A stretch of 64,000 nucleotides of DNA from an uncultured Acidobacteriota bacterium (GCA_963739795.1 CAVUBL010000010.1:178799-242798), one strand, 5' to 3'; counted from the stretch's first letter, positions 2,579-39,636 are shown. The notes: a model not told the origin generated them from the letters alone. Made by a program: numbers and translations.

Positions 2579-2751
2579 GGACCTTGATTCTAGGTCGCTC
2601 CTCTTCGGCGTCCATGAAATGCATTCTGGGGAAGGCGCCAAGGTGGACCAAGGCGAGGACCCGGCGGACGCCTCTGCCCGGCGCTACGGCACGAATGCAT
2701 AATCGGGTACAGTCTCGGCCACGTGGCGCGCGGTGCGGCCGGGAGACTTTC

Positions 2752-4242
<1,491 letters not shown>

Positions 4243-4274
4243 GGCGGCGGAGCTCCGTCTCGGCCGGAAGGGGC

Positions 4275-5468
4275 TTGCGGTTGTTCCGCTCGCGCCTGCC
4301 GTTTCCCGTCCTCCTCGCTCTGCGCTACCTGCGGAGCACCCGCCGGGACGCCTTCACGACCTTTCTCTCGGTGGTGGCGGTGGGCGCCATCACGGTGGGG
4401 GTGGCGGCCTTGATCCTCTCGCTCTCGGCCCTCGCCGGGTTCCAGAGCCTGCTGCGCTCGGAGGTCCTGGCCCAGACCCCGGAGATTGAGGTCGCCCTGC
4501 CCGACGACCTGGCGCCGAAGGCCGAGGTCGCCGCGGAGCGGACCGCCCGCGGGGTGACGGGAGTGCGCTCGGTGGCGGCGGTGGTCCGGGGGCACGGTTG
4601 GCTGGTGCGGTCCGGGCGCGTGGTGCCCGCGGACCTCATGGGCTTCGAGGGCGCTACGCCCCCCGCCCTGCCCGGCATCGAGGGTTCGGGGCGGGGTCTC
4701 TACCTGTCCCGGACCCTGGCCTCGTCGTGGGCGCTGCGTCAGGGAGCCGTGGTCGAGGTCGTCTCGCCGCGACCCACCTTGACCCCCATGGGCCCCCAGC
4801 CGCGCCTGCGCAGCCTTCCTCTGGCCGGCACCTACTCGGGCGGACGGGTGATGGAGACGGAGCGCGCCGCCCTGCCCCTGGACGTGGCCGAGAGCCTTCT
4901 GGGAAGGGGCCGGAGGCACCTGCTGGTGGACGCAGGAGGGCTCGACGCGGCCCTGGCCCTCGCCCCGCGCCTCGCCGCCGTCCTGCCCGCGGGCTCTCGC
5001 GTCGACACCTGGAAGGACCTGAACCGGCCGCTCTTCTTCGCCCTCCGGCTCGAGCGGCTCTTCCTGTTCCTGGGCGTGTCGCTGATCGTGGTCGTGGCCT
5101 CCCTCGCTCTCCTGGCCGACCTGGCCCTGATCCTGGCCAACAAGCGCGAGGACATGGGGATGCTCCTGACCCTCGGGGCCACCCCCCGCACCCTGCGGCG
5201 GGCGTTCTTGCTCCTGGGCGGGCTCCTCGCCCTCCTCGGCTCCTTCGTCGGCTCGGTCCTGGGGGTGGGCGCCTCGCTCCTCTTCGACCGCTTTCGGCTG
5301 ATCCATCTGCCGGGCGACGTCTTCTTCGTCGACTACATCCCCTTCCAGGTGCGGCCGGCCAACCTGGTGATCATCCTGACGGTGACCCTGGGCCTGGCCT
5401 TCGCCGCCTCCTTCTACGGCGCCGGCAAGGCCGCCGCCCTGGAACCCATCGAGGCACTGCGGCGATGA
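4275..5468 (+). CDS. LolC/LolE-family lipoprotein-release ABC permease (FtsX-like)
   Basis: Four-TM FtsX/MacB-type permease with a periplasmic domain, followed directly by lolD. The TTG start at 4275 has a GGAAGG Shine-Dalgarno 4 nt upstream. The alternative start is the TTG at 4281. Confidence 0.75.
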   Translation: MRLFRSRLPFPVLLALRYLRSTRRDAFTTFLSVVAVGAITVGVAALILSLSALAGFQSLLRSEVLAQTPEIEVALPDDLAPKAEVAAERTARGVTGVRSVAAVVRGHGWLVRSGRVVPADLMGFEGATPPALPGIEGSGRGLYLSRTLASSWALRQGAVVEVVSPRPTLTPMGPQPRLRSLPLAGTYSGGRVMETERAALPLDVAESLLGRGRRHLLVDAGGLDAALALAPRLAAVLPAGSRVDTWKDLNRPLFFALRLERLFLFLGVSLIVVVASLALLADLALILANKREDMGMLLTLGATPRTLRRAFLLLGGLLALLGSFVGSVLGVGASLLFDRFRLIHLPGDVFFVDYIPFQVRPANLVIILTVTLGLAFAASFYGAGKAAALEPIEALRR

Positions 5469-5523: not shown

Positions 5524-6222
<699 letters not shown>

Positions 6223-6303: not shown

Positions 6304-8736
6304 ATGTTCGAGAAGTACAACGAGAAGGCGCGCCGGGCGCTGTTCTTCGCCCGGTATGAAGCGAGCAAGCTGGGCAGCCGGGTGATCGAGTCCGAGCACA
6401 TACTGCTCGGCATCCTGCGGGAGGGGGAGGAGACGGTCACCGAGATCTTCCGCAGGTTCCATCTCAAGCCGGAGGAGGTCCGCCGCGAGATCGAGGGCGA
6501 ACGAGTGTTCGTCGAACGCATCTCCTCGACCGCCGAGCTGCCGCTGTCGGAGGAGTCGAAGAAGATCCTCGCCTACGCCTCCCACGAGGCCGAGAGCATG
6601 CTCCACCAGACGGTCGGCTCGGAGCACCTGCTCATCGGCATCCTGCGGGTCGACGCCTGCCTGGCCATGCGCATCCTGGTGCAACACGGCCTGGACGTCT
6701 ACACCGTGCGCGAGGAGGTCCTCGCCATCGCCAAGGAGCGCGAGGCGTCGCAGCAGAAGAAGGAGCTGCCGTTCATCGCCGAGTACGGTCGCGATCTGAC
6801 GACCCTGGCCGGCGAGGGCGCCTTCGATCCCCTGATCGGCCGGGAGGAGGAGGTCGACCGGATCGTCCAGATCCTCTCTCGCCGCACCAAGAACAACCCG
6901 ATCCTCCTGGGCGAGCCGGGAGTGGGCAAGACCGCCATCGTCGAAGGCCTGGCCCAGCGCATCGTCGACGGCCGGGTGCCCATCTTCCTGGCCAACAAGC
7001 GGATCGTGGCGCTCGACCTGTCGCTCATCGTCGCCGGCACCAAGTACCGAGGCCAGTTCGAGGAGCGCCTCAAGGGCATCCTCAAGGAGCTCAAGGAGTG
7101 CCGGGAGCTGATCGTCTTCATCGACGAGATCCACTCCCTGATCGGCGCCGGCTCGGCGGAGGGGTCCCTCGACGCCGCCAACATCCTCAAGCCCGCCCTG
7201 TCCCGCGGGGAGATCTCCTGCGTCGGCGCCACGACCCTCAAGGAGTACCGCAAGTACATCGAGAAGGACCGCTCGCTGTTGCGCCGCTTCCAGGCGATCC
7301 AGATCGACCCGCCGAACGAGGAGGAGACCCTCTCCATCCTCCAGGGGGTCAAGGACCGCTACGAGGCCTTCCACAAGGTCCGCTACACAGGGGCGGCCCT
7401 GCGCACGGCGATCTACCAGTCGAGCCGCTACATCCCGGACCGCCACCTGCCGGACAAGGCCATCGACATCATGGACGAGGCCGGAGCCCGGGTGAAGCTG
7501 CGCCGGGTGCGCGACACCCAGAACGTGCGCCGCCTGGAGCAGGAGATCCGCGACGTGGTGCAGGAGATGAAGGCGGCGATCTCCGAGAAGGAGTTCGAGC
7601 GGGCGGTCTTCCTCCGGGAGCGGGAGATCGAGCTGCGCGAGGACCTCGAGCGCCTGAACAGCTCCGCCCAGGAGGAGGGGCCCCTGGAGGTCACGCGCCG
7701 CGATATCGAGGAGGTGATCTCCTCCTGGACCGGCATCCCGGTGGCCAGCCTCGAGACCGAGGAGGCCGAGCGCCTGCTACGCATGGAGGAGACCCTCAGG
7801 CGCCGCGTGGTCGGCCAGGACACGGCGATCAGCGCCATCAGCCGCGCCATCCGCCGTTCGCGGCTCGGGGTCTCGAACCCCCACCGTCCCATGGGCTCCT
7901 TCATTTTCCTGGGGCCGTCCGGGGTCGGCAAGACCGAGGTCGCCCGGCGCCTCTCGGAGTTCCTCTTCGGCAGCGTGCGTGCCCTGGTGCGCTTCGACAT
8001 GAGCGAGTACATGGAAAAGCACGCCGTCTCCAAGCTGATCGGCTCTCCACCGGGCTACGTGGGCCACGACGAGGGCGGGCAGCTCACCGAGCGCATCCGC
8101 CGCCAGCCCTACTCCGTGGTGCTCTTCGACGAGATCGAGAAGGCTCACCCCGAGGTCTCGAACCTGCTCCTCCAGATCCTCGAGGACGGCATCCTGACCG
8201 ACGCCTACGGCAACGAGGTGGACTTCAAGAACACCCTGGTCCTGATGACCTCGAACATCGGGAGCCGGCTGGTGGTGCGGGGCGGCAGGATGGGCTTCGG
8301 AGAGGCCGACGACGAGGCGGCCTTCCGCAAGCTCGAGGAGGAGATTCTCGCCGACCTGAAGCGCTCGTTCAGCCCCGAGTTCATCAACCGGCTGGACGAA
8401 GTGATCGTCTTCAACCCGCTCTCGCGGCTGCATCTGCGCGCCATCGTCGACATCTTGCTCGACGACGTCAACGCCACCCTGGCAGACCGGAACCTGACGG
8501 TGGTGATCTCCGACGCGGCGAAGGAGTGGCTCCTCGAGGAAGCGGGGATCGACCCGTCGACCGGAGCCCGCCCTCTGCGCAGGACGATCCAACGGCACAT
8601 TCAGGACGCCGTCTCCGAGATCCTGATCGAGCAGCACGGCGAGGAGATCACCGAAATCGACGTCGACGTCGACATCGCGGGCGACGGCCTGCGACTGGAG
8701 CCGCACGTCGCCGAGATGGCGGTGCCCGAGACCTGA
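6304..8736 (+). CDS. clpC: ATP-dependent Clp protease ATP-binding subunit ClpC-like (AAA+ double ring)
   Basis: Two Clp N-terminal repeats, a D1 domain ([15 protein letters not shown]), a linker and a D2 domain ([16 protein letters not shown]..., sensor motifs). At 810 aa it is too short for the ClpB middle domain. Confidence 0.8.
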
Positions 8737-8914
8737 GATACCCTGTCCATCGAAGGTTGACGGACTACCAGGAGATCTCCTCACGGCAGCGGGCCGCCGG
8801 GCGAGCATTTCACTTGCAGCGACCGATCTGTCAGAATCTGCCGCCGACCGGGCGGGAGGGACCCGTCCGGCTCCCGCCCACCGTCGAGAACAACCCAAGG
8901 GTGAATAGGACGCG

Positions 8915-11407
8915 ATGAGACGAACCAGTCCGAGCCCGGCCGAGGCGTGGCTCTCGCACTTGCTGATCGCCAGCCTGCTGGCGGTCTCCGTTGGCCCCGC
9001 CCTGCCGCCGCTCTCTGCTCAGGAGCCGGCGACCGAGCCTTCCACTCCGAGCAGCAAGCCCGCCGCACCGCGTCCTCCCGACGCAGGGGCGGAGGCCGCC
9101 TCGTTCGAAGGCAAGCCGGTAGTCGGCATCGAGTTCGTGGGCAACAAGACCCTCGCCCAGGACACGCTGGAGTACTACCTCGGCATCAAGCCGGGCCAGC
9201 CCTTCTCGCGCGCTCAGCTCGACAGCAACATCCAGCGCCTTTGGGACCGGGACCTGATCGACGACATCAGCGTCGAGGCCCTGCCCGCGACCGGCGCAAA
9301 CAACTCCCCCGGCGTCCGGCTGGTAGTGAGCCTCAAGGAGCGGCCGCGCATCTCGTCGGTGGAGTACAAGGGGCTCAAGCGGATCAGCGAGGCGGATCTG
9401 AAAGACAAGCTGTCGGGCGAACGGGTCGAGCTCACCGAGGGAGGCCCCCTCAACCTGGGCGAGCTCTACCGGGTCAAGGGCGTGATCGAAGAGATGTACG
9501 CCGAGAAGGGCTACCGGTTCGCCCAGGCCGAGTACCGCCTGGAGCCCTCGGGCGAGAACGAGCGCCGGGTCGTCTTCACCATCGACGAGGGCGACCGCGT
9601 GCGGATCGGCGACATCCAGTTCGAGGGCAACACGGTGTTCCGGGAGGCCCGGCTGCGCTGGGAGATGAAGAACACCAAGGAGTCGGGCCTGTTCACCCGC
9701 ATGTTCAAAAAGGACATCTACAACCCGGCCAAGCTCTCCGAGGACCTGGACAAGGTGCGCGACGTCTACCGCCAGGCGGGCTACAAGAACGTGGTCATCG
9801 GCGAGCCGCGCATTCAGGTCAAGGCCGAGAACCCCAACGCCGCGCCCGACAAGCAGAAGCGCCGCCTGGTGATCACCGTGCCCATCGAGGAGGGCAACCG
9901 GTGGAAGTTCGGCGACGTCAAGATCGAGGGCAACAAGATCTTCAAGGAGGCGCCGCTGCTGCGCGTCTTCAAGTTCCGCAAGGGCGACTGGCTGCGCTCG
10001 GACACGATCAAGGACGGCGTCGACGCGATCAAGGACATCTACCACAACACCGGCTACATCCAGGCCCAGGTCACGCCCGAGCTGGTGGAGAAGACCGACG
10101 AGGTGGCCGAGGTCGTCATCCACGTCAACGAGGGGGACCAGTACCGCGTCGGCCGCCTGGAGTTCGAGGGCAACCGGCGGACCAAGGACAAGGTGCTGCG
10201 GCGCGAGTTCCGGGCCCAGGAGGGCCGGGTCCTCTCCTTGGGTGCCCTCAAGAACAGCCTCTACAAGATCCGCCAGCTCGGCTACTTCGAGCTGGACAAG
10301 GAAGACCCGATCCAGTTCCAGTTCAACGATGACAACACCGTCGACCTGACCGTCAAAGGTCAGGAAGCCGACCGGACCGAGCTCCAGTTCGGCGCTGGCT
10401 ACAGCGAGGGCCTGGGCTTCTTCGGGCAGTTCTCGGTGCAGACCCACAACTTCCTCGGCCGGGGCGAGCAGCTCGGCGTCAGCGTGCAGAACGGCGCCCT
10501 GACCCAGTACTACGACGCCAACTACTTCGTCCCCTGGTTCCTGGACCGGCCCCAGTCGGTGGGGATTCAGGCCTTCGAGCGGCAGTACGACTTCAATCTG
10601 CTGGCGAACCAGCGGGAGATTCAGAAGTCCAAGGGCGGGTCGTTCAGCTACGGCCGATCCCTGGGGCTGTTCCAGTCCCTGACCATGTCCTACAGCTACT
10701 CGGACCAGTCCTACGAGCAACAGTTGACGGCCAACGGGGTCACGTCCACGTTCGTCAACAAGCTCAAGATCTCCTCGTTGCGGCCCGGGTACTCCTACAA
10801 CAGCATCGACAACCCCTTCGAGCCGCGGGTCGGCACCCGGCTCACCGCCTCCACCGAGTACGCGGGGACCTTCCTGGGAGGCTCGGAGGACTTCATCCGC
10901 CCGGTGGTCGGCTTCACGGCGTACCGTCCGGTCTCGGGGTATCCCCTCGAAACGGTGGTCGGGCTCAACCTCGAGGGCGGCCTGGTCAGGCCCTTCGGCG
11001 GCCAGCAGCTCCAGCGGTTCGTGCTGTTCCGCCTCGGCGGCGACACCTCGGTGCGCGGCTTCGAGCGCTACCGCCTCTACGCCCGCGACCCGAAGACGAA
11101 CAACTTCATCGTGGACCAGAACGGCTTCCCGATCGGCGGCGACCGCTACGTCCAGGGCAATCTCGAGTACCACCTGATCCTCAACGGTCCGTTCCGGCTC
11201 ATCGCATTCGTCGACGCGGGGCAGGTCTACGCTCCGGGGCAGGCCTTCGACCTCGGCCGTATGCGCTACACCGCGGGCGCCGAGCTGCGCATCACCCTGC
11301 CGGTCCTGGGCGGGGCACCACTCCGGTTCATCTGGGCCAAGAACCTGACGCCGCTGCCGGGCGACAGCTTCAACAGCTTCTCGTTCAGCATCGGAAGCAC
11401 CTTCTAG
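8915..11407 (+). CDS. bamA: outer membrane protein assembly factor BamA (Omp85/D15)
   Basis: Signal peptide, five POTRA-like repeats (GKPVVGIEFVGNKTLAQDTLEYYLGIKPGQPFS...), a C-terminal 16-strand barrel region and a terminal Phe beta-signal (SIGSTF). Confidence 0.9.
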   Translation: MRRTSPSPAEAWLSHLLIASLLAVSVGPALPPLSAQEPATEPSTPSSKPAAPRPPDAGAEAASFEGKPVVGIEFVGNKTLAQDTLEYYLGIKPGQPFSRAQLDSNIQRLWDRDLIDDISVEALPATGANNSPGVRLVVSLKERPRISSVEYKGLKRISEADLKDKLSGERVELTEGGPLNLGELYRVKGVIEEMYAEKGYRFAQAEYRLEPSGENERRVVFTIDEGDRVRIGDIQFEGNTVFREARLRWEMKNTKESGLFTRMFKKDIYNPAKLSEDLDKVRDVYRQAGYKNVVIGEPRIQVKAENPNAAPDKQKRRLVITVPIEEGNRWKFGDVKIEGNKIFKEAPLLRVFKFRKGDWLRSDTIKDGVDAIKDIYHNTGYIQAQVTPELVEKTDEVAEVVIHVNEGDQYRVGRLEFEGNRRTKDKVLRREFRAQEGRVLSLGALKNSLYKIRQLGYFELDKEDPIQFQFNDDNTVDLTVKGQEADRTELQFGAGYSEGLGFFGQFSVQTHNFLGRGEQLGVSVQNGALTQYYDANYFVPWFLDRPQSVGIQAFERQYDFNLLANQREIQKSKGGSFSYGRSLGLFQSLTMSYSYSDQSYEQQLTANGVTSTFVNKLKISSLRPGYSYNSIDNPFEPRVGTRLTASTEYAGTFLGGSEDFIRPVVGFTAYRPVSGYPLETVVGLNLEGGLVRPFGGQQLQRFVLFRLGGDTSVRGFERYRLYARDPKTNNFIVDQNGFPIGGDRYVQGNLEYHLILNGPFRLIAFVDAGQVYAPGQAFDLGRMRYTAGAELRITLPVLGGAPLRFIWAKNLTPLPGDSFNSFSFSIGSTF

Positions 11408-11431
11408 ACGAAGCAAAGGAGAGTCGAACCG

Positions 11432-12052
11432 ATGTCCCTCCACCCCCGGATTCGCAAAGCGTGCCGCCGCGCCCGCTGCGTGGCGGCCCTCCTGCTCCTG
11501 GGCGCCTTGACGCCCGCCGCGTCGCCGGCGCAGCAGGCCCCGGCGCCGGCCAAGCCGGCACCGGGCGCCAAGGCACAGAGCCCGGCGGCCTCGAGGCCCG
11601 CGAAGGTGGCCGTCATCGATGTGGAGCGCATCCTCCTCGAATCGAACCGGGGCAAGAAGGCCCTGGCCGAGATCGAAGCGCTGCGCAAGAAGAAGCAGCA
11701 GGAGGGGGATGCCAAGCAGAAGGAGATCACCGACCTGCAGCAGAAGATCAAGGACGGCCAGCTCTCGCTCTCGGAGGAGAAGCTCGCCGGTCTCAAGAAG
11801 CAGCTCGAGGACCAGCTCATCGCGCTGCAGAGGTTCCAGGACGACGCGAAGCGGGACCTCTCGAAGAAGCGCGACGAGGTCCTGGACCAGATCGAGAAGA
11901 GCGTGTTCCCGGTAATCAACAAGATCGGTGCGGAGGGTGGCTATACACTGATCTTCAACAAGTACCGGAGCGGCCTGGTGTACGCGGACGACGCCGTGGA
12001 CATCACCGAGCAGGTCATCGCACGGTACAACCAGACGACCTCCGGTCAGTAG
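11432..12052 (+). CDS. skp: periplasmic chaperone Skp/OmpH
   Basis: Signal peptide followed by a long coiled-coil OmpH-like region (VAVIDVERILLESNRGKKALAEIEALRKKKQQ...). AAGGAGAG Shine-Dalgarno 8 nt upstream. Canonical position between bamA and lpxD. Confidence 0.8.
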   Translation: MSLHPRIRKACRRARCVAALLLLGALTPAASPAQQAPAPAKPAPGAKAQSPAASRPAKVAVIDVERILLESNRGKKALAEIEALRKKKQQEGDAKQKEITDLQQKIKDGQLSLSEEKLAGLKKQLEDQLIALQRFQDDAKRDLSKKRDEVLDQIEKSVFPVINKIGAEGGYTLIFNKYRSGLVYADDAVDITEQVIARYNQTTSGQ

Positions 12053-12058
12053 CCGCCT

Positions 12059-13126
12059 GTGCCCGCACCGGGGTTCCGCCTCATCGATCTCGCCGAGCGC
12101 CTGGGGGGCCGGGTGGTGGGCGATCCAGAGCGCCGGGTGAGCGGCGTCGCCAGCCTCGATCAGGCGGAGCCCGAGGATCTGGCGTTCCTCACCGACTCCC
12201 GGCACCGGCGCGAGGCGCAGCGGAGTCGCGCCGGAGCCCTCCTCGTGGGCCCGGACAGCGAGGGGCTGAAGAGCCCGACGCGAAGCGTCCTGGTGGTGGA
12301 GGACCCGGAGCTCGCCCGCAACCGGGTGCTGGAGCTCTTCCACCCGGCGCCGAAGCTCGTTCCGGGGGTCCATGCGACGGCGGTGGTCGACCCGGAGGCA
12401 CTGGTCTCCGCCGAGGCGGAGGTGGGTCCCTTCGCGGTCATCGGCGCCGGCAGCGTCGTGGCCGCCGGCGCCCGGGTGGGCGCGCACGCGGTGGTGGGAC
12501 GGGAGTGCCAGGTGGGCGCCGGCTCGGTCCTCCACCCCCACGTCGTGCTCTACGATCGGACCCGGCTGGGACGGCGGGTGGTGGTCCATTCCGGCACGGT
12601 CCTCGGCGCCGACGGGTTCGGCTACACCAGCCGCTCCGACGGGCATCGGAAGGTGCCCCAGGTGGGGGCGCTGTGGGTGGAAGACGACGTGGAGATCGGA
12701 GCCGTGTCGGCCCTGGACCGGGCGACCCTGGGGGCCACCCGGGTCGGTGCCGGGACCAAGATCGACAACCTGGTCCAGGTGGGCCACAACGTGGAGATAG
12801 GGCGCGGCGCGATCCTGTGCGGCCAGTCCGGTGTCGCGGGCAGCGCCCGGCTGGGCGACGGGGTGGTGCTCGCCGGCCAGGCGGGCGTGGGCGGACACAT
12901 CGAGCTCGGTGATCGCGTGAAGGTCGGCGCCGCCTCCGCCGCGGTCAAGCCGGTGAGCGCCGGGACGGTGGTCAGCGCCACCGTACCCGCAATGGAGATC
13001 GGCCGGTGGCGGCGCCTGGTGGCGCTGATCGGCCGTCTGGACGAGATCTATCGCCGCCTCCGGGCCCTGGAGGACCGGGTCGAAGAGCGCGCGGGGGCGG
13101 CCAGGGAGGAGACGGGAATTGACTGA
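12059..13126 (+). CDS. lpxD: UDP-3-O-(3-hydroxyacyl)glucosamine N-acyltransferase
   Basis: LpxD N-terminal domain plus left-handed beta-helix hexapeptide repeats. GTG start. Synteny skp-lpxD-fabZ-lpxA. Confidence 0.9.
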   Translation: MPAPGFRLIDLAERLGGRVVGDPERRVSGVASLDQAEPEDLAFLTDSRHRREAQRSRAGALLVGPDSEGLKSPTRSVLVVEDPELARNRVLELFHPAPKLVPGVHATAVVDPEALVSAEAEVGPFAVIGAGSVVAAGARVGAHAVVGRECQVGAGSVLHPHVVLYDRTRLGRRVVVHSGTVLGADGFGYTSRSDGHRKVPQVGALWVEDDVEIGAVSALDRATLGATRVGAGTKIDNLVQVGHNVEIGRGAILCGQSGVAGSARLGDGVVLAGQAGVGGHIELGDRVKVGAASAAVKPVSAGTVVSATVPAMEIGRWRRLVALIGRLDEIYRRLRALEDRVEERAGAAREETGID

Positions 13127-13604
13127 GACCGAACGTCCACAGGCGGCGGGGGAGGACGGAGGGGACTCGCCCCGCTGGGACAGCCGCTGGATCATGGGGG
13201 TCCTGCCCCACCGTTACCCCTTTCTGCTGGTCGACCGGGTCCTCGAGATGGAGCCCGGCAAACGGATTGTCGCGATCAAGAACGTGACGATCAACGAGGA
13301 GTTCTTCGTCGGCCATTTCCCGGGGCATCCCGTGATGCCCGGTGTGCTCCTCGTCGAGGGGATGGCCCAGGCGGGAGGCATCCTGCTGCTCCACGATCGT
13401 CCGGACACCCGCGACAAGCTGGTCTACTTCGCCGGCATCGAGCGCGCCCGTTTCCGCCGCCCGGTGTTCCCGGGAGACCAGGTGCGCTACGAGGTGGAGG
13501 TCCTCGCCCTGCGCCAGACTTTCAGTAAGCTGGCATGCCGGGCGCTGGTCGACGGCAAGGTGGCGGCGGAGGCGGTGATCTCGTCGGCGACGGTGGACCG
13601 GTGA
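13119..13604 (+). CDS. fabZ: 3-hydroxyacyl-ACP dehydratase
   Basis: Hot-dog fold motifs ([31 protein letters not shown]). The TTG start overlaps the lpxD stop (TTGACTGA). The alternative start is the ATG at 13194. Confidence 0.85.
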
Positions 13605-13609
13605 GCACG

Positions 13610-14434
13610 ATGGCCGCCACCGTCCACCCGACCGCCGTCGTCGATCCCTCCGCCGAGCTGGGCGAGGGAGTCTCGGTCGGCCCCCACGCCGTCATCGGTG
13701 CCGGCGTCGTGGTCGGGGAGGGCACCGAGATCGGCTCCGGCGCCCAGGTCCTGGGTCCCGGCACCCGCCTCGGCCGGGAGAACCGGGTCTTCCCGTACGC
13801 CTGCGTGGGCTTCGAGCCGCAGGACCTGAAGTTCCGGGGAGAGGAGACCCGGCTCGAGATCGGGGACCGCAACCAGATCCGGGAGTTCACCACCCTCCAC
13901 CGGGGAACAGCGTTCGGCGGCGGCGTGACCTCGATCGGCTCCGACAACCTCTTCATGGCCTACTGCCACGTGGCCCACGACTGCCACGTGGGCGATCGCT
14001 GCGTGTTCACCAACTGCGCCACCCTCGGGGGGCACGCGACGGTCCACGACGACGCCACCATCGGCGCCTTCAGCGCCGTCCATCCCTTTACCCGGGTGGG
14101 GCGGCACGCCTACATCGGTGGCTACACGGTGCTCACCATGGACGCCCTGCCGTACGTCAAGACAGTCGGTCAGAAGCCGGCCTGCCTGGGGCTGAACGTC
14201 ATCGGCCTGCGGCGCAAGGGGATGCCGGAGAAGACCCGGCGCCGGATCGGCAGGGCGATGAAGATCCTCCTCTCGTCGGGGCTCAACACCAGCCAGGCGG
14301 TCGAGCGCATCCGCGAGGAGCTCGCCGGAGTCGAGGAGATCGACTACCTGCTCGGGTTCATCGAGAGCTCGGAGCGCGGCGTGGTCAAGGCGGCCCCCGG
14401 GCGGCGGGGCGAGCGGGGCGGAGCGGCCGAATGA
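13610..14434 (+). CDS. lpxA: UDP-N-acetylglucosamine acyltransferase
   Basis: Hexapeptide-repeat acyltransferase with an LpxA C-terminal helical domain. The ATG at 13610 lies 6 nt after the fabZ stop. Confidence 0.9.
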   Translation: MAATVHPTAVVDPSAELGEGVSVGPHAVIGAGVVVGEGTEIGSGAQVLGPGTRLGRENRVFPYACVGFEPQDLKFRGEETRLEIGDRNQIREFTTLHRGTAFGGGVTSIGSDNLFMAYCHVAHDCHVGDRCVFTNCATLGGHATVHDDATIGAFSAVHPFTRVGRHAYIGGYTVLTMDALPYVKTVGQKPACLGLNVIGLRRKGMPEKTRRRIGRAMKILLSSGLNTSQAVERIREELAGVEEIDYLLGFIESSERGVVKAAPGRRGERGGAAE

Positions 14435-15378
14435 GCGGCGCGCCCTCCATCCTCCGGGCCGGCGTCTTCGGCACCGGCGCCCTCGGGCGCCACCACACGC
14501 GGATCCTCGGGGAGCTCCCGGATGCCGAGCTGGTGGGGATCTACGACCCCCGGGAGGAGGCCGCGCGGGCGATGGCCGAGGCCCACGGAGCGCGAATCTT
14601 TCCCTCTGCGGAGGCCCTCGCGTCCGAGATCGAGGTCGCGGTGGCGGCGGTGCCCACCGTGCTCCACGCCGAGGTGGGCTGCGCCCTTCTCGAGCGGGGC
14701 ATCCACGTGCTGGTGGAAAAGCCCCTCGCCTCCTCACTGGCGGAGGCCGACCGTTTGATCGAAGCGGCTCGCGCGGCGGGCGTCGTTCTGGGCGTGGGGC
14801 ACGTGGAGTTCTTCAACCCGGCGGTCCGGGTTCTCCACGGCTTCGTGCGCGAGGAAGGGATCGTTCCGGGGTTCGTCGAGGTGCAACGCCTTGCGCAGTT
14901 CACCCCCCGGAGCCTGGACGTGGACGTGGTGCTCGACCTGATGATCCACGACCTCCAGATCCTCCACGCCCTCGACCCGAGCCCGCTGGCCGAGGTCCGG
15001 GCCACGGGCATCAACGTGCTCTCCCCGCGCATCGACATCGCCAACGTCCGTCTGGAGCTCGAGAGCGGCTGCGTCGCCAACCTCACCGCGTCGCGGGTCT
15101 CTTCCGATCGGGTGCGCAAGCTCCGCATGTTCGGGCGCTCCCGCTACTTCTCCCTGGACTACCAGGACCAGGAGGTGAAGGGCTATCGCCTCGAGACCTC
15201 CGGGGACGGGCGGCAGATCCAGCCCACCGACCTGCCGGTGGAGAAGGCAGAGCCCCTGCGCCGAGAGCTCGAGGCGTTCCTCGCCGCGTGCCGCGGTGAG
15301 GGCGGCGAGCACGTGAGCGGTGAGGAGGGGCGGCGGGCGCTGGCGACCGCCCTGGCGGTGGTCGAGGCGATTCAGTAG
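14431..15378 (+). CDS. Gfo/Idh/MocA-family NAD(P) oxidoreductase, GnnA-like candidate (UDP-GlcNAc 3-dehydrogenase)
   Basis: N-terminal Rossmann fold (LRAGVFGTGALGRHH) with a C-terminal GFO_IDH_MocA domain. Its ATG overlaps the lpxA stop (ATGA), indicating translational coupling. Confidence 0.8.
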   Translation: MSGAPSILRAGVFGTGALGRHHTRILGELPDAELVGIYDPREEAARAMAEAHGARIFPSAEALASEIEVAVAAVPTVLHAEVGCALLERGIHVLVEKPLASSLAEADRLIEAARAAGVVLGVGHVEFFNPAVRVLHGFVREEGIVPGFVEVQRLAQFTPRSLDVDVVLDLMIHDLQILHALDPSPLAEVRATGINVLSPRIDIANVRLELESGCVANLTASRVSSDRVRKLRMFGRSRYFSLDYQDQEVKGYRLETSGDGRQIQPTDLPVEKAEPLRRELEAFLAACRGEGGEHVSGEEGRRALATALAVVEAIQ

Positions 15379-15415
15379 GGCGCCCGCCGCACCCCAGTCC
15401 GGCCAGCCCGCCGGA

Positions 15416-17290
15416 TCACTTCGGGTCCTCGAGGTCCTCGAGATCGACGCTGGTCGAGCCCCAGGCGCCGGTGGCCAGGTCCTCCACCAGCACCACGCCC
15501 CACGCCGCGCCGGAGGGGATCTCGACGCGGCCGGCGATGGGCACGAGGGCCGGCGCCTCGGCCGCCGCCGTCTCCCGCCCCAGCTCCACGATCTCCGGCG
15601 GGCCGACCCCGTCCCCGGTGCCGGTTCCCGCCGGCGCCGCGATCCCCAGCGTCGCCCGAAAGACCGTGTCCCCGTCCGAGCTCCCGAGGCTCGAAAGGTC
15701 GGGCTCCGCCACGACTCGAGCCTCCCCGGCGCCGGTCCCGGGGTGTGCCCAGGCGGTGACCTTCAGCTTGCCGGCGGACGGCGCCGCCTCGGCGAGGAGC
15801 CGGCGCAGGCGGGCCGCGGCCACCGTCGGCGGCGCTCCGAAGCGGACCCGGGCCGGTGCCTGCACGTCCACCCGAGGCCGCGACGAGGCCACCTCCAGCT
15901 CGTGGAGCTCGCCGTCGGGCAACCCCGGAAGCTGCACGGTGGCGATCACCCGGCGATCGAGGGCCGCGAGAGCCGCGTCCATGTCCTCGGGCCGGCTGAC
16001 CACCACACCGGCGCTGCCCCGGGCGAGGAGGGTCGGGCCGGCCGCCGGGGCTCGGGGGAGCGCCGCCGCCGCGGGAACGTCCACGACCGCGTCCGGGTCC
16101 CGCCGGGCCGCCTTCGCGTAGTAGCGCCGCGCCTTGCCGGCGTCGCTCCGGCCTTCCCAGCTCCGGGCGATGAGCACCAGGGCCCGGGCCTGCTCGTTGG
16201 CGGTGCGGGGGTCCCTGGCGAAGTGCACCAGGGCCCTCTCGGCGGCTTCGGCAGCGCCCTCGAGCTCGCCCTGGCCCAAGCGGGCGGCAGCAAGGTCCAG
16301 GTAGGCGCGGGCGCGCTTCGGATCTCGGTCCTCCTCGTAGGTCGCGCCGCCCAGGAGCGCACCCAGGAAGATCGGCACCCGGCTGCGGGCGCCCAGACCG
16401 AACCGCCATTTGCCGATCCGCCATCCCGGCACGAGTCCGGAGCCCTCGAGCCGGACCAGGGGCTGGACGAGCCAGCCGTAGGCCGCCAGCGTGTCGGAGA
16501 GCTCGGAGGCCGGGGGAACCAGGGCGGCGGTCCCCGGGCCAGGGCTCTCCCCTTCGGAGGTGACCGGCGTCGGATCGAAGCCACCGGCGGTCAGGAAGAC
16601 GCAGCGCCGAGCGCTCGAGCCCGCCCCGCGCTCGACCAAGGCCAGCAGCAGGGTGTCGAGGCGCCGCTGGAAGAGGGTGACCTCACGCGCCGCGTCGAGC
16701 CGCCGGAGGGCCGCGCGCTCTTCGGTCCCCTGCGCAGAGCGGAGCTCCTGGAGGGCTTGGAGGCGCAGGGTGACCAGGGCGTCCTCTCCCCGGGGCTGAA
16801 GCGCGAGCCGGGCGAGGGCGGTCTCGAGAGCCGCGGCGTCCCGGGTCGGGTACACGAGCGTCCTCGGCCGGGGATCGGCCACCACCAGCTCGATCTCGCC
16901 TCGGGAGACCAGGTCGTCGAGGTGGTCGAGGAGCTGGGAGGCGGCCCATGCGACCTGGCCCTCGTCGGCCAGGACCAGGTCGAAGTAGAGGACGATGCGC
17001 GCCGGAGCGGCGGTCTCGCCGGGCAGGTCCAGGCTGACGACGGGGCGCGGCTCGCCGTCGATGCGCACCGCGAGGTCGGAGGGCACAAGGTCAGACGGCG
17101 ACCGGCTCCGATGGGCCAAGACCGGGAGGCCGCTTCCCGACACGTCGAGGGCGATGTCCACGGCGGTGACCCGCTCCTGACCGCGGAAGGCGCTCGGGGT
17201 GTGGGGCGGGTCGGACGGCCGGGCGCCGGCCGGCGGGGCCGCGGCGAAGAGGCAGGCGGCGAGGTACAGGACGGAGGGGAATCGTCTCAT
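15416..17290 (-). CDS. secreted vWA-domain protein with C-terminal TPR (Acidobacterial VWFA-related type)
   Basis: Signal peptide (MRRFPSVLYLAACLFAAAPPAGA), a MIDAS-like DVSGSG motif near the N-terminus, and TPR-like repeats at the C-terminus. The start is taken at the Met beginning the signal peptide. Confidence 0.7.
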   Translation of the reverse strand: MRRFPSVLYLAACLFAAAPPAGARPSDPPHTPSAFRGQERVTAVDIALDVSGSGLPVLAHRSRSPSDLVPSDLAVRIDGEPRPVVSLDLPGETAAPARIVLYFDLVLADEGQVAWAASQLLDHLDDLVSRGEIELVVADPRPRTLVYPTRDAAALETALARLALQPRGEDALVTLRLQALQELRSAQGTEERAALRRLDAAREVTLFQRRLDTLLLALVERGAGSSARRCVFLTAGGFDPTPVTSEGESPGPGTAALVPPASELSDTLAAYGWLVQPLVRLEGSGLVPGWRIGKWRFGLGARSRVPIFLGALLGGATYEEDRDPKRARAYLDLAAARLGQGELEGAAEAAERALVHFARDPRTANEQARALVLIARSWEGRSDAGKARRYYAKAARRDPDAVVDVPAAAALPRAPAAGPTLLARGSAGVVVSRPEDMDAALAALDRRVIATVQLPGLPDGELHELEVASSRPRVDVQAPARVRFGAPPTVAAARLRRLLAEAAPSAGKLKVTAWAHPGTGAGEARVVAEPDLSSLGSSDGDTVFRATLGIAAPAGTGTGDGVGPPEIVELGRETAAAEAPALVPIAGRVEIPSGAAWGVVLVEDLATGAWGSTSVDLEDLEDPK

Positions 17291-17517: not shown

Positions 17518-20500
17518 ATGCCTTCGTCGAACGCGGAGATCGTCAAGACCGAGTTGGTGAGGGAGCTGGCCGCCACGGCGCGCGAGCGCGTGGCGGCGTC
17601 CGGAGAGGGGGAGGGCCAGGGCGGCCCCGACTCGGTCGAGCGCTTTGTCCGGAGCTGCTACGAGACCATCGCTCCGGACGACCTGATGGCCCGGGACAAG
17701 GACGACCTGGTGGAGCAGGCCCTGTCCCTCTGGCGCTGGGGGGCCGAGCGCGAGCCGGGCGTCGCCAAGATCCGGGTCTTCGACCCGACGCGCCAGGAGC
17801 ACGGCTGGGAATCCCCGTTCACCGTCGTCGAGGTGGTCAACGACGACATGCCCTTCCTGGTCGATTCCGTGACCGCGGCCCTCAACGCCCGGGAGCACCC
17901 GGTGCAGCTCGTCCTCCACCCGGTCGTGGCGGTGGCCCGGGACGAGCAGGGGGCACGCCGGCGCCTCGCCCTGCTGCCGGCGGGCGAGGGCTGGAGCCCC
18001 GAGTCCTACATGCAGGTGGAGCTCGACCGGATCTTCGACCCCGCCGAGCTCGAGGAGACCCGCAAGACCATCGAGATCGTGCTCGAGGACGTCCGTGCGG
18101 CGGTCGGCGACTGGCGGGCGATGCGGGACAAGATCGGCGAGATCGTCGACGGCTGGGAGGCCTCGCCGCCGCCGGTCGAAGAGGGAGAGCTCGAGGAGGC
18201 GAAGCAGCTCCTCCGCTGGCTCGACGACGACCACTTCACCTTCCTCGGCTACCGCGAGCTCGACCTGGTCGAAACGAAGGGCGAGACCTACCTGCGGCTG
18301 GTGCCGGGCTCGAGCCTCGGCGTCCTCCGCGCCCGCGAGACCGAGCACTCCCGGCGCCTCCGCCCCCTGACCGAAAAGATGGCGCAGTTCGCCCGCGAGC
18401 CCCGCCTGCTGTTCGTGACCAAGGCCAACCACCGGGCGACGGTGCACCGGCGCTCCCACATGGACTACGTCGGCCTCAAGCGCTTCGACGAGTCCGGCCG
18501 GGTGGTCGGCGAGCGGCGCTTCCTCGGCCTGTTCACCTCCATCGCCTACAACCGCCAGGCGAGGAAGATCCCCCTGCTGCGCGAGAAGGTGGAGCGGACG
18601 CTCCAGCGGGCCGGCTTCCCGTCCGAGGGGCACGACGGCAAGGCCCTCCTCCACATCCTCGAGACCTTCCCGCGCGACGAGCTCTTCCAGATCTCCGAGC
18701 AGCGGCTGCTGGAGATCAGCGTCGGCATCCTCCAGCTCCAGGAGCGCCAGCGCATCGCCCTCTTCGTCCGCCGGGACCCCTTCGAGCGCTTCGCCTCGTG
18801 CCTGGTCTACGCGCCCCGGGACCGCTACAACACCGAGCTGCGCCTGACCATGCAGAAGATCCTGGAGGAGGCCTTCGACGGCGCGGTCACCGCCTACTAC
18901 ACCCAGGTGACCGACTCGCCCCTCGCCCGGGTCCACTACATCGTCCAGACCACCCCGGGCCGGCTTCCGGACGTCGACGTCAAGGAGGTCGAGACCCGTC
19001 TCACCCAGGCCGCCAGAACCTGGAGCGACCAGCTCCGCGAGGTGCTCCTGGCAAGGGGCGACGAGGAACGCCAGGTGCGCCTGTTCAAGCGCTACCGGGA
19101 AGCGTTCCCCACCTCGTACCGCGAGCAGTTCACGGTCGAGGACACGCTCCTCGACATCGCCAAGATCGAGGAGGTGCTGGACAGCGGGCGCCTGGGCATG
19201 TACCTCTACCGCAAGCCCGAGGCGCCGGCCGACGAGGTGCGCTTCAAGCTCTACCATGCCGGGCGGCCCATCCCCCTGTCCGACGCCCTTCCGCGCCTGG
19301 AGAACATGGGGGTCCGCGTCGGCTCGGAGATCCCTCACGAGATCCGGCCCGAGGGCTCGGAGGAGTCGGTCTGGATGCACGACTTCGGCCTCGAGCTCAC
19401 GGGCGGTGGCCAGGCCGCGGGCTTCGCGCGTCTGGAGGAGATCTTCCCCGAGGCCTTCGAGCGCATCTGGCACGGCGAGGTGGAAAACGACGGCTTCAAC
19501 CGGCTGGTCGTGCGTGCCGGCCTGGCCTGGCACGAGGTGGTGGTGCTCCGGGCCTACGCGAAGTTCCTCCGCCAGGCGCGCTCAGCCTTCAGCCAGGCCT
19601 ATATGCAGGAGACCCTGGCCAGCAGCCCCGATCTCTCCCGGCTTCTGGTGGAGCTCTTCCAAGTGCGTTTCGACCCCGACCATCGGGAAGGGGTCGAGGA
19701 GCGGTTGTCGGAGGTCCAGAAGCGGCTCCAGGCGGCGCTCACCGAGGTCAAGAGCCTGGACGAGGACCGGATCTTCCGACGCTTCCTGAACCTGGTCCGC
19801 AACACCCTGCGCACGACCTACTTCCAGCGCACCCCCGAGGGGGAGCGCAAGGCGTACCTGTCCCTGAAGCTCAAGTCGGCGGACATCAAGGTCCTGCCGA
19901 TGCCCCGGCCTCTCTACGAGATCTTCGTCTACTCGCCGCGCACCGAGGCGGTCCACCTGCGAGGCGGCAAGGTGGCCCGCGGCGGCGTGCGCTGGTCCGA
20001 CCGCCGGGAGGACTTCCGCACCGAGATCCTCGGCCTGATGAAGGCCCAGATGGTGAAGAACGCCGTGATCGTGCCGGTGGGGGCCAAGGGCGGCTTTGTC
20101 CTCAAGCAGGCTCCGGCGGCCGGCGACCGGGAGGCGCTGCTCGCCGAGGGGATCGCCTGCTACCAGATCATGATCCGGGGCCTCCTCGACCTCACCGACA
20201 ACCTGGTCGAAGGCAAGGTGGTGGCGCCTTCCCGGGTCGTGCGCCTGGATGACGACGACCCCTACCTGGTGGTCGCCGCCGACAAGGGCACCGCCAAGTT
20301 CTCCGACATCGCCAACCGCCTGGCCGCCGAGTACGGCTTCTGGCTCGGCGACGCCTTCGCCTCCGGCGGCTCGGCGGGCTACGACCACAAGGCCATGGGG
20401 ATCACGGCCAAGGGCGCCTGGGTGGCGGTCGAGCGGCACTTCCGGGAGCTGGGGGTCGACATCCGCCACGAGCCGTTCACGGTGGTCGGCGTCGGCGACA

Positions 20501-22398
20501 TGTCGGGCGACGTCTTCGGCAACGGCTTACTGCTCTCGAAGCACATCCGGCTGTTGGGCGCGTTCAACCACCTCCACGTCTTCATCGATCCGGACCCGAA
20601 CCCCTCGACCTCGTTCGCCGAGCGCAAGCGCCTCTTCTCCCTCGCCCGCTCGAGCTGGGGGGACTACGACCGGAGCAAGATCTCCAAGGGCGGCGGCGTC
20701 TTCGACCGGGCGGCCAAGTCCGTCGACCTGTCGCCGGAGATCCGGGAGCTGCTCGGGATCAAGGAGGAGTCGGTGCCGCCGGCGCGGCTGATCCAGGCCC
20801 TCCTCACGCACCGGGTGGATCTCTTGTGGTTCGGCGGCATCGGCACCTTCGTCAAGGCCACCGACGAGACCCACGGCCGGGTGGGCGACCGGGCCAACGA
20901 CGACGTGCGGGTGGACGCCTCCCGGCTGCGCTGCCGCGTGGTCGGGGAGGGGGCCAACCTGGGGATCACCCAGCGCGGGCGCATCGAGTACGCCCGCGCC
21001 GGCGGCAAGATCAACACCGACGCCATCGACAACTCGGCGGGTGTCGACACTTCGGACCACGAGGTGAACATCAAGGTCCTCCTGGGCGACGTCGTGGCCC
21101 GCGGCGACCTGACCGTCGAGGACCGCAACGCTCTGCTCGAGACCATGAGCAACGAGGTGAGCAGCCTGGTCCTCCGGGACAACTACCTCCAGACCCAGGC
21201 GATCTCGGTGACCGAGACCCAGGGCGCCTCCCTCCTCGACGCCCAGCAGCGGATGATGCGGGTGCTCGAGCGGGCCGGGCGCCTGGACCGGTCCCTCGAG
21301 TGGCTTCCCGACGACGAGGCCCTCGCCGAGCGCCAGGCGGCGAGCGCCGGCCTCACGCGGCCCGAGATCGCTGTGCTCCTGGCCTACAGCAAGATCTCCC
21401 TCTACCGGGACCTGCTCCGGTCGACCCTGCTCGACGACGCCCTCTTGGCCGAAGACCTGGTCCTGTACTTCCCCCGACCACTCCGCCGCAAGTACCGGCG
21501 GGCGATCGAGCAGCACCGCCTGCGCCGCGAGATCATCGCCACCTACGTCACGAACAGCATGGTCAACCGCGTCGGTCCGACCTTCGTCACCGAGATCGTG
21601 AGCGAGACCGGCGCCGAGCCGGCGGACGTGGCCCGCGCCTACACCGTGGCCCGGGAGTCCTTCGACCTGCGCTCGGTGTGGCGCGCCATCGAAGCTCTCG
21701 ACAACCGCGTGCCGGCGGACGTCCAGCTCAGGATGACGGTGGCGGCGGGGAGGCTGGTCGAGAGGGTGACCCTCTGGTTCCTGCGCTACGCCGAGTCTCC
21801 GCTGGACATCAGCGCCTGCACCCGGGAGTTCTCGCCGGCGGTTGGAACACTCCTCGAGCACCTGGAGGAGCTGCTCTCCCGAACCGAGCTGTCAGAGCTG
21901 CGCAAGCGGGAGAAGAGCTACACGAGGGACGGCGTGCCGGCCGATCTGGCCCGGCGGGTCGCCGCCCTGTCCGACCTGGCCGCCGCCTGCGACATCTGGA
22001 CCCTTGCCCGGAGCGGCAGCCGCGGCGTGGAGGAGGTGGGGCGGATCTACTTCGCTCTTGGCGACCGGTTCCGCCTGGACTGGCTGCGGGACCTGGCAGG
22101 CCGTCTGAGCGCCGACGGGCGCTGGAAGAAGGCCGCGGTGACCGCCGTGGTCGACGACCTGTTCGTCCACCAGGGGGCGCTGACCCGCCAGGTGCTGGAA
22201 GGCGTGGGCAGCAACGGTGGCGCCCGGCGGATCATCGACGCCTGGGCGCGGCGCCGGCCCGAGGCCGTCTCGCGGACCGACGAGGTCCTGCGGGAGATCC
22301 GCGCCGCCAAGACGCCCGACCTGGCCATGCTCATGGTCGCCGACGACCAGCTCCGCCGCCTGGTGGCGGTGGGGGACGAAGGAGAAGGAAAGAGCTGA
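17518..22398 (+). CDS. gdhB: NAD-specific glutamate dehydrogenase, large (~180 kDa) Bac_GDH family
   Basis: A 1626 aa protein with the catalytic core (GANLGITQRGRIEYARAGGKINTDAIDNSAGVDTSDHEVNIKVLL) embedded in long N- and C-terminal extensions typical of the 1600-aa bacterial NAD-GDH. Confidence 0.9.
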   Translation: MPSSNAEIVKTELVRELAATARERVAASGEGEGQGGPDSVERFVRSCYETIAPDDLMARDKDDLVEQALSLWRWGAEREPGVAKIRVFDPTRQEHGWESPFTVVEVVNDDMPFLVDSVTAALNAREHPVQLVLHPVVAVARDEQGARRRLALLPAGEGWSPESYMQVELDRIFDPAELEETRKTIEIVLEDVRAAVGDWRAMRDKIGEIVDGWEASPPPVEEGELEEAKQLLRWLDDDHFTFLGYRELDLVETKGETYLRLVPGSSLGVLRARETEHSRRLRPLTEKMAQFAREPRLLFVTKANHRATVHRRSHMDYVGLKRFDESGRVVGERRFLGLFTSIAYNRQARKIPLLREKVERTLQRAGFPSEGHDGKALLHILETFPRDELFQISEQRLLEISVGILQLQERQRIALFVRRDPFERFASCLVYAPRDRYNTELRLTMQKILEEAFDGAVTAYYTQVTDSPLARVHYIVQTTPGRLPDVDVKEVETRLTQAARTWSDQLREVLLARGDEERQVRLFKRYREAFPTSYREQFTVEDTLLDIAKIEEVLDSGRLGMYLYRKPEAPADEVRFKLYHAGRPIPLSDALPRLENMGVRVGSEIPHEIRPEGSEESVWMHDFGLELTGGGQAAGFARLEEIFPEAFERIWHGEVENDGFNRLVVRAGLAWHEVVVLRAYAKFLRQARSAFSQAYMQETLASSPDLSRLLVELFQVRFDPDHREGVEERLSEVQKRLQAALTEVKSLDEDRIFRRFLNLVRNTLRTTYFQRTPEGERKAYLSLKLKSADIKVLPMPRPLYEIFVYSPRTEAVHLRGGKVARGGVRWSDRREDFRTEILGLMKAQMVKNAVIVPVGAKGGFVLKQAPAAGDREALLAEGIACYQIMIRGLLDLTDNLVEGKVVAPSRVVRLDDDDPYLVVAADKGTAKFSDIANRLAAEYGFWLGDAFASGGSAGYDHKAMGITAKGAWVAVERHFRELGVDIRHEPFTVVGVGDMSGDVFGNGLLLSKHIRLLGAFNHLHVFIDPDPNPSTSFAERKRLFSLARSSWGDYDRSKISKGGGVFDRAAKSVDLSPEIRELLGIKEESVPPARLIQALLTHRVDLLWFGGIGTFVKATDETHGRVGDRANDDVRVDASRLRCRVVGEGANLGITQRGRIEYARAGGKINTDAIDNSAGVDTSDHEVNIKVLLGDVVARGDLTVEDRNALLETMSNEVSSLVLRDNYLQTQAISVTETQGASLLDAQQRMMRVLERAGRLDRSLEWLPDDEALAERQAASAGLTRPEIAVLLAYSKISLYRDLLRSTLLDDALLAEDLVLYFPRPLRRKYRRAIEQHRLRREIIATYVTNSMVNRVGPTFVTEIVSETGAEPADVARAYTVARESFDLRSVWRAIEALDNRVPADVQLRMTVAAGRLVERVTLWFLRYAESPLDISACTREFSPAVGTLLEHLEELLSRTELSELRKREKSYTRDGVPADLARRVAALSDLAAACDIWTLARSGSRGVEEVGRIYFALGDRFRLDWLRDLAGRLSADGRWKKAAVTAVVDDLFVHQGALTRQVLEGVGSNGGARRIIDAWARRRPEAVSRTDEVLREIRAAKTPDLAMLMVADDQLRRLVAVGDEGEGKS

Positions 22399-23973: not shown

Positions 23974-24032
23974 TGGCTCGCCCTCCTCACCCTCGATCTC
24001 GTTTCGTCTCGCGGCGGTGTGACCCGAAGCCT

Positions 24033-26296: not shown

Positions 26297-26334
26297 CGCG
26301 GGAAATGTAGCATCCCGCGCCGCCCTTCCGGCGA

Positions 26335-39615: not shown

Positions 39616-39636
39616 CCACCGCCAGAGAGACCAACC

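Follow-up and report, generated by a model that had tools for sequence, protein, structure and literature searches.

A probable GnnA-type oxidoreductase gene overlapping lpxA in a Thermoanaerobaculia lipid A operon, and a possible route to lipid A based on 2,3-diamino-2,3-dideoxyglucose

A lipid A operon carried on 64,000 nucleotides of DNA from an uncultured Acidobacteriota bacterium (GCA_963739795.1, CAVUBL010000010.1:178799-242798; this whole stretch is referred to here as the window) ends in a gene for an oxidoreductase of the Gfo/Idh/MocA family, which begins on the stop codon of lpxA. The window comes from a member of the Thermoanaerobaculia, as homologues of the oxidoreductase bear the NCBI name "Thermoanaerobaculia bacterium" and an identical protein is encoded on GCA_964443905.1. 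We find that the product of this gene (14431-15378) is very probably an orthologue of GnnA, a UDP-N-acetylglucosamine (UDP-GlcNAc) 3-dehydrogenase, as judged from its similarity to the characterized enzyme and from its conserved residues. Together, GnnA and GnnB make 2,3-diamino-2,3-dideoxyglucose (GlcN3N) (PMC8036547; PMC3342949). By analogy with the characterized systems, we consider it reasonably probable that the whole chain operates in this organism, leading from the GnnA orthologue through a GnnB encoded at an unlinked site to lipid A built on GlcN3N. Knowledge of this enzyme family, of the reaction, and of the location by lpxA goes back to 2004; the present analysis extends that knowledge and is not a discovery of it.

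The identification of the oxidoreductase is carried by both sequence and predicted structure. A phmmer search of the Protein Data Bank (PDB) returns 7bvj/7bvk as the best match (E 4e-51, 177 bits, residues 8-314); these entries are GnnA of Acidithiobacillus ferrooxidans, a UDP-N-acetylglucosamine 3-dehydrogenase (Sweet et al. 2004, Manissorn et al. 2020). The second sequence match is a myo-inositol dehydrogenase at E 3.8e-17, and the IolG and glucose-fructose oxidoreductase entries fall between E 1e-17 and 1e-8, those of the glucose-fructose oxidoreductases being near 1e-8. An AlphaFold2 model of the window protein, built on 41 family members, has a predicted local distance difference test score (pLDDT) of 95.4 and a predicted template modeling score (pTM) of 0.91. 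When this model is compared with the PDB by Foldseek, the five best matches are all GnnA chains (E 2e-33 to 1e-31, template modeling (TM) scores of 0.90-0.94), with a root-mean-square deviation of 1.4-2.8 Å that is 1.4-1.7 Å in four of the five; the next match is a 1,5-anhydrofructose reductase at E 2.7e-24.

The residues conserved in the family point to the same enzyme. The motifs EKP, GH, PRSLDxDVxxDLMIHDL, and VANLxASRV are common to the window protein and A. ferrooxidans GnnA. In the alignment of 41 members, which includes GnnA proteins linked to gnnB, 32 columns are invariant, among them K97, H173, D174, R153, R160, R222, and R229; G14, G16, G19, and the E96-K97-P98 triplet are likewise invariant, and D169 is nearly so. 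The window protein keeps the GxGxxG Rossmann loop, E96-K97-P98, and D169-x3-H173. Profile libraries are less discriminating, as the Pfam matches (PF01408, PF02894, and PF22725) are to generic family domains only, and NCBIfam holds no model for bacterial GnnA or GnnB. The top NCBIfam match is the archaeal UDP-GlcNAc 3-dehydrogenase model NF040723, at 201 bits, and the IolG model TIGR04380 gives 86 bits versus a cut-off of 355.

The family to which the protein belongs is widespread. When one genome per GTDB species is scanned with the family alignment as the query, at least 591 confirmed relatives are obtained. Within the Acidobacteriota, the best 80 of these belong to Thermoanaerobaculia, Terriglobia, Bryobacteraceae, Vicinamibacterales, Blastocatellia, and Aminicenantes; the other phyla represented in the same 80 are Verrucomicrobiota, Nitrospirota, Gemmatimonadota, Eisenbacteria, and Lentisphaerae. 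A metagenome scan adds 80 further loci, of which ∼40 are of the Thermoanaerobaculia type at 60-72% identity, and orthologues occur in the lipid A clusters of at least six phyla. A neighbor-joining tree of representatives follows the phyla and places A. ferrooxidans GnnA inside the family. In this tree, the protein P0181, from an lpxA-lpxI-gfo-lpxB cluster without an adjacent gnnB, nests among the gnnB-linked proteins of Acidithiobacillus and Desulfuromonadota, which argues for one orthologous group. The family is a single vertically inherited group of orthologues and not a set of paralogues. An earlier reading of the window, made from its nucleotides alone (the sequence-only reading), had taken the product for a GnnA-like oxidoreductase, as opposed to one of the myo-inositol or glucose-fructose type; sequence, predicted structure, phylogeny, and synteny with the characterized archetype all agree with that view. 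Finally, the ratio of nonsynonymous to synonymous substitution rates between the window and a relative at 85% identity (L002) is 0.19 for the gnnA-like gene, 0.13 for lpxA, and 0.18 for lpxD. The gene is under purifying selection and is maintained like its essential neighbors.

The genes lpxD, fabZ, lpxA, and the gnnA-like gene form a tight operon, and the last junction reads gccgaATGAgcggc, where the ATG at 14431-14433 overlaps the lpxA stop codon TGA at 14432-14434 (ATGA, 14431-14434) and is preceded, at a distance of 7 nt, by a GGAG. This overlap, already noted in the sequence-only reading and confirmed here, couples translation of the two genes. The identical 4-nt overlap is present in L002, and the Acidithiobacillus gnnA also starts 4 nt ahead of the lpxA stop (GCCATGATAA). 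Across directly adjacent pairs, and taking the nearest start codon, the overlap with the lpxA stop is 4 nt in 19 of 66 and 8 nt in 6 of 66.

Neighborhoods of the orthologues were read by tblastn and by clustering of adjacent open reading frames (ORFs). The gene directly upstream of the orthologue is lpxA in 51 of the 124 informative loci, and an lpxA-lpxI-gfo order is seen in 28 of the 124. Because the direct adjacency recurs in so many loci, with lpxI alone intervening in the 28 others, the association of lpxA with the oxidoreductase is not due to chance. Directly downstream, lpxB is found in 23 of 125 informative loci, and lpxK and kdtA follow further downstream in several phyla. Linkage of the family to lpxA, lpxI, lpxB, lpxK, and kdtA is seen in Acidobacteriota, Nitrospirota, Gemmatimonadota, Verrucomicrobiota, Eisenbacteria, and others. 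In the first four of these and in allied phyla, the orthologue belongs to the core of the lipid A operon (lpxA-[lpxI]-gnnA-[lpxB]), and no aminotransferase gene stands beside it.

The steps of the pathway we propose are modeled on the characterized one (PMC8036547; PMC3342949; PMC11446377). The gnnA-like enzyme would oxidize the 3''-OH of UDP-GlcNAc with NAD+ to give a 3-keto sugar, which a DegT-type GnnB encoded elsewhere in the genome would convert to UDP-GlcNAc3N. LpxA would then N-acylate UDP-GlcNAc3N, and the remaining Raetz enzymes would deliver lipid A that contains GlcN3N, with amide-linked 3/3' chains and as many as four primary acyl chains in amide linkage. Through the coupling of gnnA to lpxA, production of the modified substrate would be linked to that of the acyltransferase consuming it, and the ancestral lpxA-gnnA-gnnB-lpxB block was probably cut after gnnA in this lineage. 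The top PDB matches of the window LpxA are LpxA structures (E 5e-66), and in alignment the protein retains the general catalytic residues, with the PQDLK motif and counterparts of the histidines H122, H125, H144, and H160 of the Escherichia coli enzyme. The selectivity of LpxA is unreadable from its sequence, since that of the Leptospira interrogans enzyme was reportedly ascribed, by Robins and co-workers in 2009, to the orientation of a backbone carbonyl. At about residue 159, the window LpxA has a Pro (AVHPF), as does L002; the residue at that site is Gln (AVHQF/Y) in E. coli (Q161), Acidithiobacillus, Desulfuromonas, and the locus L089.

Several observations weigh against the proposed route to GlcN3N lipid A, and the first of them concern GnnB. 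The sequence-only reading had remarked that no GnnB-like gene is adjacent; a Pfam scan of all gene-like ORFs (∼55 across the 64 kb) detects no DegT/DnrJ/EryC1 aminotransferase in the entire window. Nor is a GnnB-like gene found within 10 kb in 162 orthologue loci from phyla without an adjacent gnnB (1.89 Mb of flanks), as searched by tblastn with E. coli ArnB, A. ferrooxidans GnnB, and Desulfuromonas versatilis GnnB, the last two being 56% identical to each other. The sole traces of an aminotransferase in these loci are two weak, generic DegT fragments (L111 and L132, 26-31% identity). The literature searches also weigh on this side: no lipid A structure of any acidobacterium was found in the searchable literature, and no paper on GlcN3N in acidobacterial lipid A was found. 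Akkermansia muciniphila lipid A has an ordinary glucosamine (GlcN) backbone, and metagenome-assembled genomes (MAGs) labeled Akkermansiaceae carry a family member that does not lie beside lpx genes; we take this comparison as a caution only and do not count it as evidence. As for the enzyme itself, the characterized GnnA is just 35-37% identical to the window protein (37% over the full length by sequence, 35% by Foldseek), and the NF040723 score lies below the model cut-off of 450 bits. Control proteins give 163 (Acidithiobacillus), 219 (D. versatilis), and 164 bits (P0181) on this model, all below 450. Because they do, the sub-cut-off score of the window protein fits a true bacterial GnnA.

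The searches for GnnB are best read in light of what an unlinked gene would predict. In the phyla that contribute the 162 loci, gnnB is not clustered with gnnA. If gnnB is unlinked in genomes of a few Mb, only ∼0.5 chance co-locations are expected in these loci, and the null result is therefore no evidence that gnnB is absent. In the window, A. ferrooxidans GnnB gives a single tblastn match, of 39 bits, to a class I aminotransferase. This gene (24033-25235) was considered as a substitute transaminase and rejected: it is of the PRK07777 type (548 bits) and belongs to a conserved nitrilase-aminotransferase-kinase group. In a GnnB profile search, all of the top 120 matches listed belong to the Desulfuromonadota or Acidithiobacillus types, with identities no lower than 57%. 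Representatives clustered at 50% identity form a continuum of thousands of DegT paralogues that are 45-55% identical to GnnB, and for this reason the mere presence of a gnnB homologue is a weak test if it is not placed in a tree.

A rival explanation is that a true GnnA-family enzyme occurs in an organism without GnnB, having another role in the lipid A operon or being silent, with the GlcN backbone left as it is. Such a role might be the formation of another 3-keto or 3-modified intermediate, or might be regulatory or redox in nature. In its favor, none of the 162 non-proteobacterial loci has a GnnB-like gene within 10 kb, whereas gnnB is adjacent in Acidithiobacillus and Desulfuromonadota; many phyla have the gene between lpxI and lpxB in a cluster without an aminotransferase; and the lipid A of Akkermansia is GlcN-based. 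However, family members without an adjacent gnnB do not form a separate clade in the tree, the catalytic and putative substrate-binding residues are invariant in both groups, purifying selection on the gene equals that on lpxD, and 10-kb flanks would miss an unlinked gnnB. Proven producers of GlcN3N such as Campylobacter jejuni reportedly keep gnnA and gnnB away from lpxA (van Mourik and co-workers, 2010). We regard a GnnA-family enzyme without GnnB, whatever its role, as unlikely. The broader proposal that the GnnA orthologue works without GnnB throughout Acidobacteriota, Nitrospirota, Gemmatimonadota, Verrucomicrobiota, and allied phyla, either by making an intermediate (UDP-GlcNAc or lipid A) that carries a 3-keto group or some other modification, or with a non-DegT transaminase as its partner, strikes us as improbable. 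If true, GnnB-independent action would mean a lipid A backbone chemistry unlike the E. coli and Acidithiobacillus models.

Two further explanations would take the enzyme out of lipid A synthesis altogether. A 3-dehydrogenase of the WbpB/WlbA or archaeal type, making 2,3-diacetamido sugars for an O-antigen, capsule, or S-layer glycan, would perform identical chemistry, namely C3 oxidation of a UDP-HexNAc, and the top NCBIfam match is indeed an archaeal enzyme of a diacetamido-sugar pathway. Yet A. ferrooxidans GnnA itself scores below the window protein on that archaeal model, and the WlbA structures match at E 9e-11 (3q2k) and 1.3e-6 (3q2i) versus 4e-51 for GnnA. Moreover, the window holds no wbpA-, wbpD-, wbpE-, or wbpI-like neighbors, and the gene forms part of the lipid A operon in many phyla and is tied to it by translational coupling, which makes this explanation very unlikely. 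The idea that an unrelated sugar oxidoreductase, of the myo-inositol, glucose-fructose, or 1,5-anhydrofructose type, came to lie at the end of the operon by chance draws on the generic GFO_IDH_MocA domains, which are all that Pfam gives, and on the public names of the homologues ("Gfo/Idh/MocA family oxidoreductase" or "predicted dehydrogenase"). It is effectively refuted by a gap of ∼34 orders of magnitude in E value between GnnA and the other solved family members, by GnnA being the best structural match as well, and by the retention of lpxA adjacency across phyla.

The genes around the lipid A operon are collected in Table 1.

Table 1. Genes in and around the lipid A operon of the window
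Feature	Position	Strand	Support or remark
lysS-like gene, class II tRNA synthetase	2695-4242	+	Pfam
lolC/E-like gene, FtsX permease	4239-5468	+	Pfam
lolD-like gene, ABC ATPase	5524-6222	+	Pfam
ClpC-type AAA+ ATPase gene	6304-8736	+	Between lolD-like gene and bamA
bamA	8915-11407	+	TIGR03303, 501 bits; five POTRA domains plus Omp85
skp/ompH	11432-12052	+	PF03938, 109 bits
lpxD	12059-13126	+	GTG start; NF002060, 364 bits; TIGR01853, 339 bits
fabZ	13119-13604	+	TTG start; TIGR01750, 191 bits
lpxA, 274 aa	13610-14434	+	NF003657, 320 bits; TIGR01852, 303 bits
gnnA-like gene, 315 aa, Gfo/Idh/MocA NAD-dependent oxidoreductase	14431-15378	+	PF01408, 98 bits
624-aa gene, convergent, outside the lipid A cluster	15416-17290	-	TIGR03436 (acidobact_VWFA), 26 bits (weak)

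The G+C content of the window is ∼70%, and the G+C content at third codon positions (GC3) of the gnnA-like gene, 0.92, is similar to that of its neighbors. The start of fabZ overlaps the end of lpxD by 8 nt, and the length of fabZ is matched by the gene call on an identical contig (L001, GCA_964443905.1). For lpxA, the longest ORF opens at 13535, and the likely start is the ATG at 13610, six bases past the fabZ stop, as in the gene call on L001. A scan for promoters and terminators over 8600-15700 returned nothing and is uninformative at 70% G+C. The operon ends at the gnnA-like gene because the next gene, which lies 37 bp past the gnnA-like stop, is convergent; its product matches no Pfam family. 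The gene is not found at this position in L002 and L003, and L002 has just an 86-aa ORF there. Close relatives, with identities of 85% and 70% and carried on contigs of 3.07 and 7.05 Mb, share the order lolD-clpC-bamA-skp-lpxD-fabZ-lpxA-gfo with the window and then diverge, and the region downstream of the gnnA-like gene is variable among relatives. That lpxB does not follow the oxidoreductase gene, as the sequence-only reading had it, is evident from the ORF map, and the Pfam scan detects no lpxB, lpxC, lpxH, lpxI, or lpxK anywhere in the window. Clusters of the Thermoanaerobaculia type lack lpxB as a feature of their lineage, and its absence here is no sign of anything unusual. In 25 loci of Terriglobia and Bryobacteraceae (e.g., L006, L018, L021, and L032), lpxB is replaced directly after the oxidoreductase by a proline-rich protein of ∼350 aa, the C-terminus of which looks TonB-like by eye only.

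Other features of the window were noted in passing. The 810-aa ClpC/ClpB-type protein upstream of bamA is a double AAA+ ATPase with a Clp_N domain; its gene is kept at this place in L002 and L003 and is missing from the Desulfuromonas and Acidithiobacillus clusters, which are collinear in other respects. A 1626-aa NAD-specific glutamate dehydrogenase with all ACT and helical-motif domains (17518-22398, + strand; Bac_GDH_CD, 865 bits) is encoded past the convergent gene and also lies next to the operon in L002. Four genes stand back-to-back at 23179-27975 (- strand). The first three, for a CN_hydrolase, a class I aminotransferase, and an APH-family kinase, are kept in L002 and look like a set for methionine salvage (omega-amidase, transaminase, kinase); the fourth encodes a ketoacyl-synthase-like protein of 546 aa that has a long extension at its N-terminus. 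A spoVG homologue, tRNA-Gln (38461-38535), prs, a gene for ribosomal protein L25/Ctc, and pth follow in a row at 37945-40988 (+ strand), and the spoVG-prs-ctc-pth arrangement is better known from Firmicutes. Bacterial RNase P RNA of class A is found at 55440-55871 (+ strand; 261 bits, full-length model match), and its 3' end abuts or overlaps the predicted start, at 55856, of an LD-carboxypeptidase ORF. Proteins with cyclic-nucleotide-binding domains are encoded at 28735-29529 (- strand) and 56773-57564 (+ strand), one fused to PilZ and one to FHA. Finally, the products of three ORFs with coding-like GC3 match no Pfam family at E ≤ 1e-3: 62-1588 (+ strand, 508 aa), 37203-37832 (+ strand, 209 aa), and 62317-63792 (- strand, 491 aa).

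If the proposed route to GlcN3N holds, Thermoanaerobaculia build their lipid A on 2,3-diamino-2,3-dideoxyglucose, and by the distribution of orthologues the same would hold for many other Acidobacteriota, Nitrospirota, Gemmatimonadota, and Verrucomicrobiota. Amide-linked acyl chains make lipid A chemically and enzymatically more stable. In Campylobacter, this change reduces the activation of TLR4 and makes the cells more resistant to cationic peptides (PMC8036547). The prediction thus bears on the envelope properties of soil and sediment bacteria that are very abundant, and on their immunological "silence". It also brings a gain in annotation for bacterial GnnA-type genes, thousands of which are labeled merely "Gfo/Idh/MocA family oxidoreductase" because NCBIfam is without a model for bacterial GnnA or GnnB. 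The prediction is useful, though it would not surprise a specialist in lipid A.

The closest characterized system is that of Acidithiobacillus, the locus of which (reached via P0123, 98% identical) reads bamA-skp-lpxD-fabZ-lpxA-gnnA-gnnB(DegT)-lpxB-rnhB-dnaE. A. ferrooxidans GnnA is of similar length to the window protein (313-321 versus 315 aa) and has the same two-domain Gfo/Idh/MocA fold (TM score 0.90-0.93), and its gene likewise follows lpxA at the end of the bamA-skp-lpxD-fabZ-lpxA series with a 4-nt start/stop overlap. The two differ in that gnnB and lpxB come directly after gnnA in Acidithiobacillus, whereas the window operon stops at the gnnA-like gene and neither of the two occurs anywhere in the 64 kb. 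The sequence-only reading had placed the oxidoreductase in a GnnA context, and it does stand directly after lpxA, as in Acidithiobacillus and Desulfuromonas. That reading also had GnnA and GnnB flank lpxA; the oxidoreductase gene adjoins lpxA, but in Acidithiobacillus both genes lie between lpxA and lpxB.

The Desulfuromonadota gnnA-gnnB systems share with the window the whole context from lysS to gnnA, with a protein identity of 42%. In D. versatilis (AP024355), the order is lysS-lolC-lolD-bamA-skp-lpxD-fabZ-lpxA-gnnA-gnnB-lpxB-msbA-DUF374-kdtA-lpxK, and gnnA and gnnB carry the submitters' annotation as UDP-GlcNAc 3-dehydrogenase and 3-aminotransferase; two more contigs have this order as well. 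The part from lysS to gnnA is common to D. versatilis L088, L089, L170, and L171. The Desulfuromonadota cluster runs on with gnnB-lpxB-msbA-kdtA-lpxK, whereas the window has a ClpC-type ATPase gene before bamA; the window holds an ancient super-cluster from lysS to gnnA, with ClpC inserted and the part from gnnB-lpxB onward missing. The L170 locus (JBFWJC010000001.1), from a MAG labeled "Pedobacter sp.", has the order lysS-lolCD-bamA-skp-lpxD-fabZ-lpxA-gnnA-gnnB-lpxB-msbA-kdtA-lpxK, collinear with D. versatilis, and the GnnB proteins of the two share 69% identity; the taxon label looks doubtful.

The uncharacterized lpxA-lpxI-gfo-lpxB clusters of Nitrospirota, Gemmatimonadota, Verrucomicrobiota, and many Acidobacteriota encode an orthologue that is 41-53% identical to the window protein. 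They usually differ from the Thermoanaerobaculia type in having lpxI before and/or lpxB after the oxidoreductase gene, whereas the Thermoanaerobaculia type has neither, and they resemble it in placing the oxidoreductase in a lipid A operon with no adjacent aminotransferase. Also related are the archaeal UDP-GlcNAc 3-dehydrogenase and the bacterial UDP-GlcNAcA 3-dehydrogenases WbpB/WlbA, which differ from GnnA in that they serve glycan pathways and are unlinked to lpx genes, but which share with it the superfamily fold, the NAD-dependent C3 oxidation of a UDP-2-acetamido sugar, and a DegT-type transamination as the next step.

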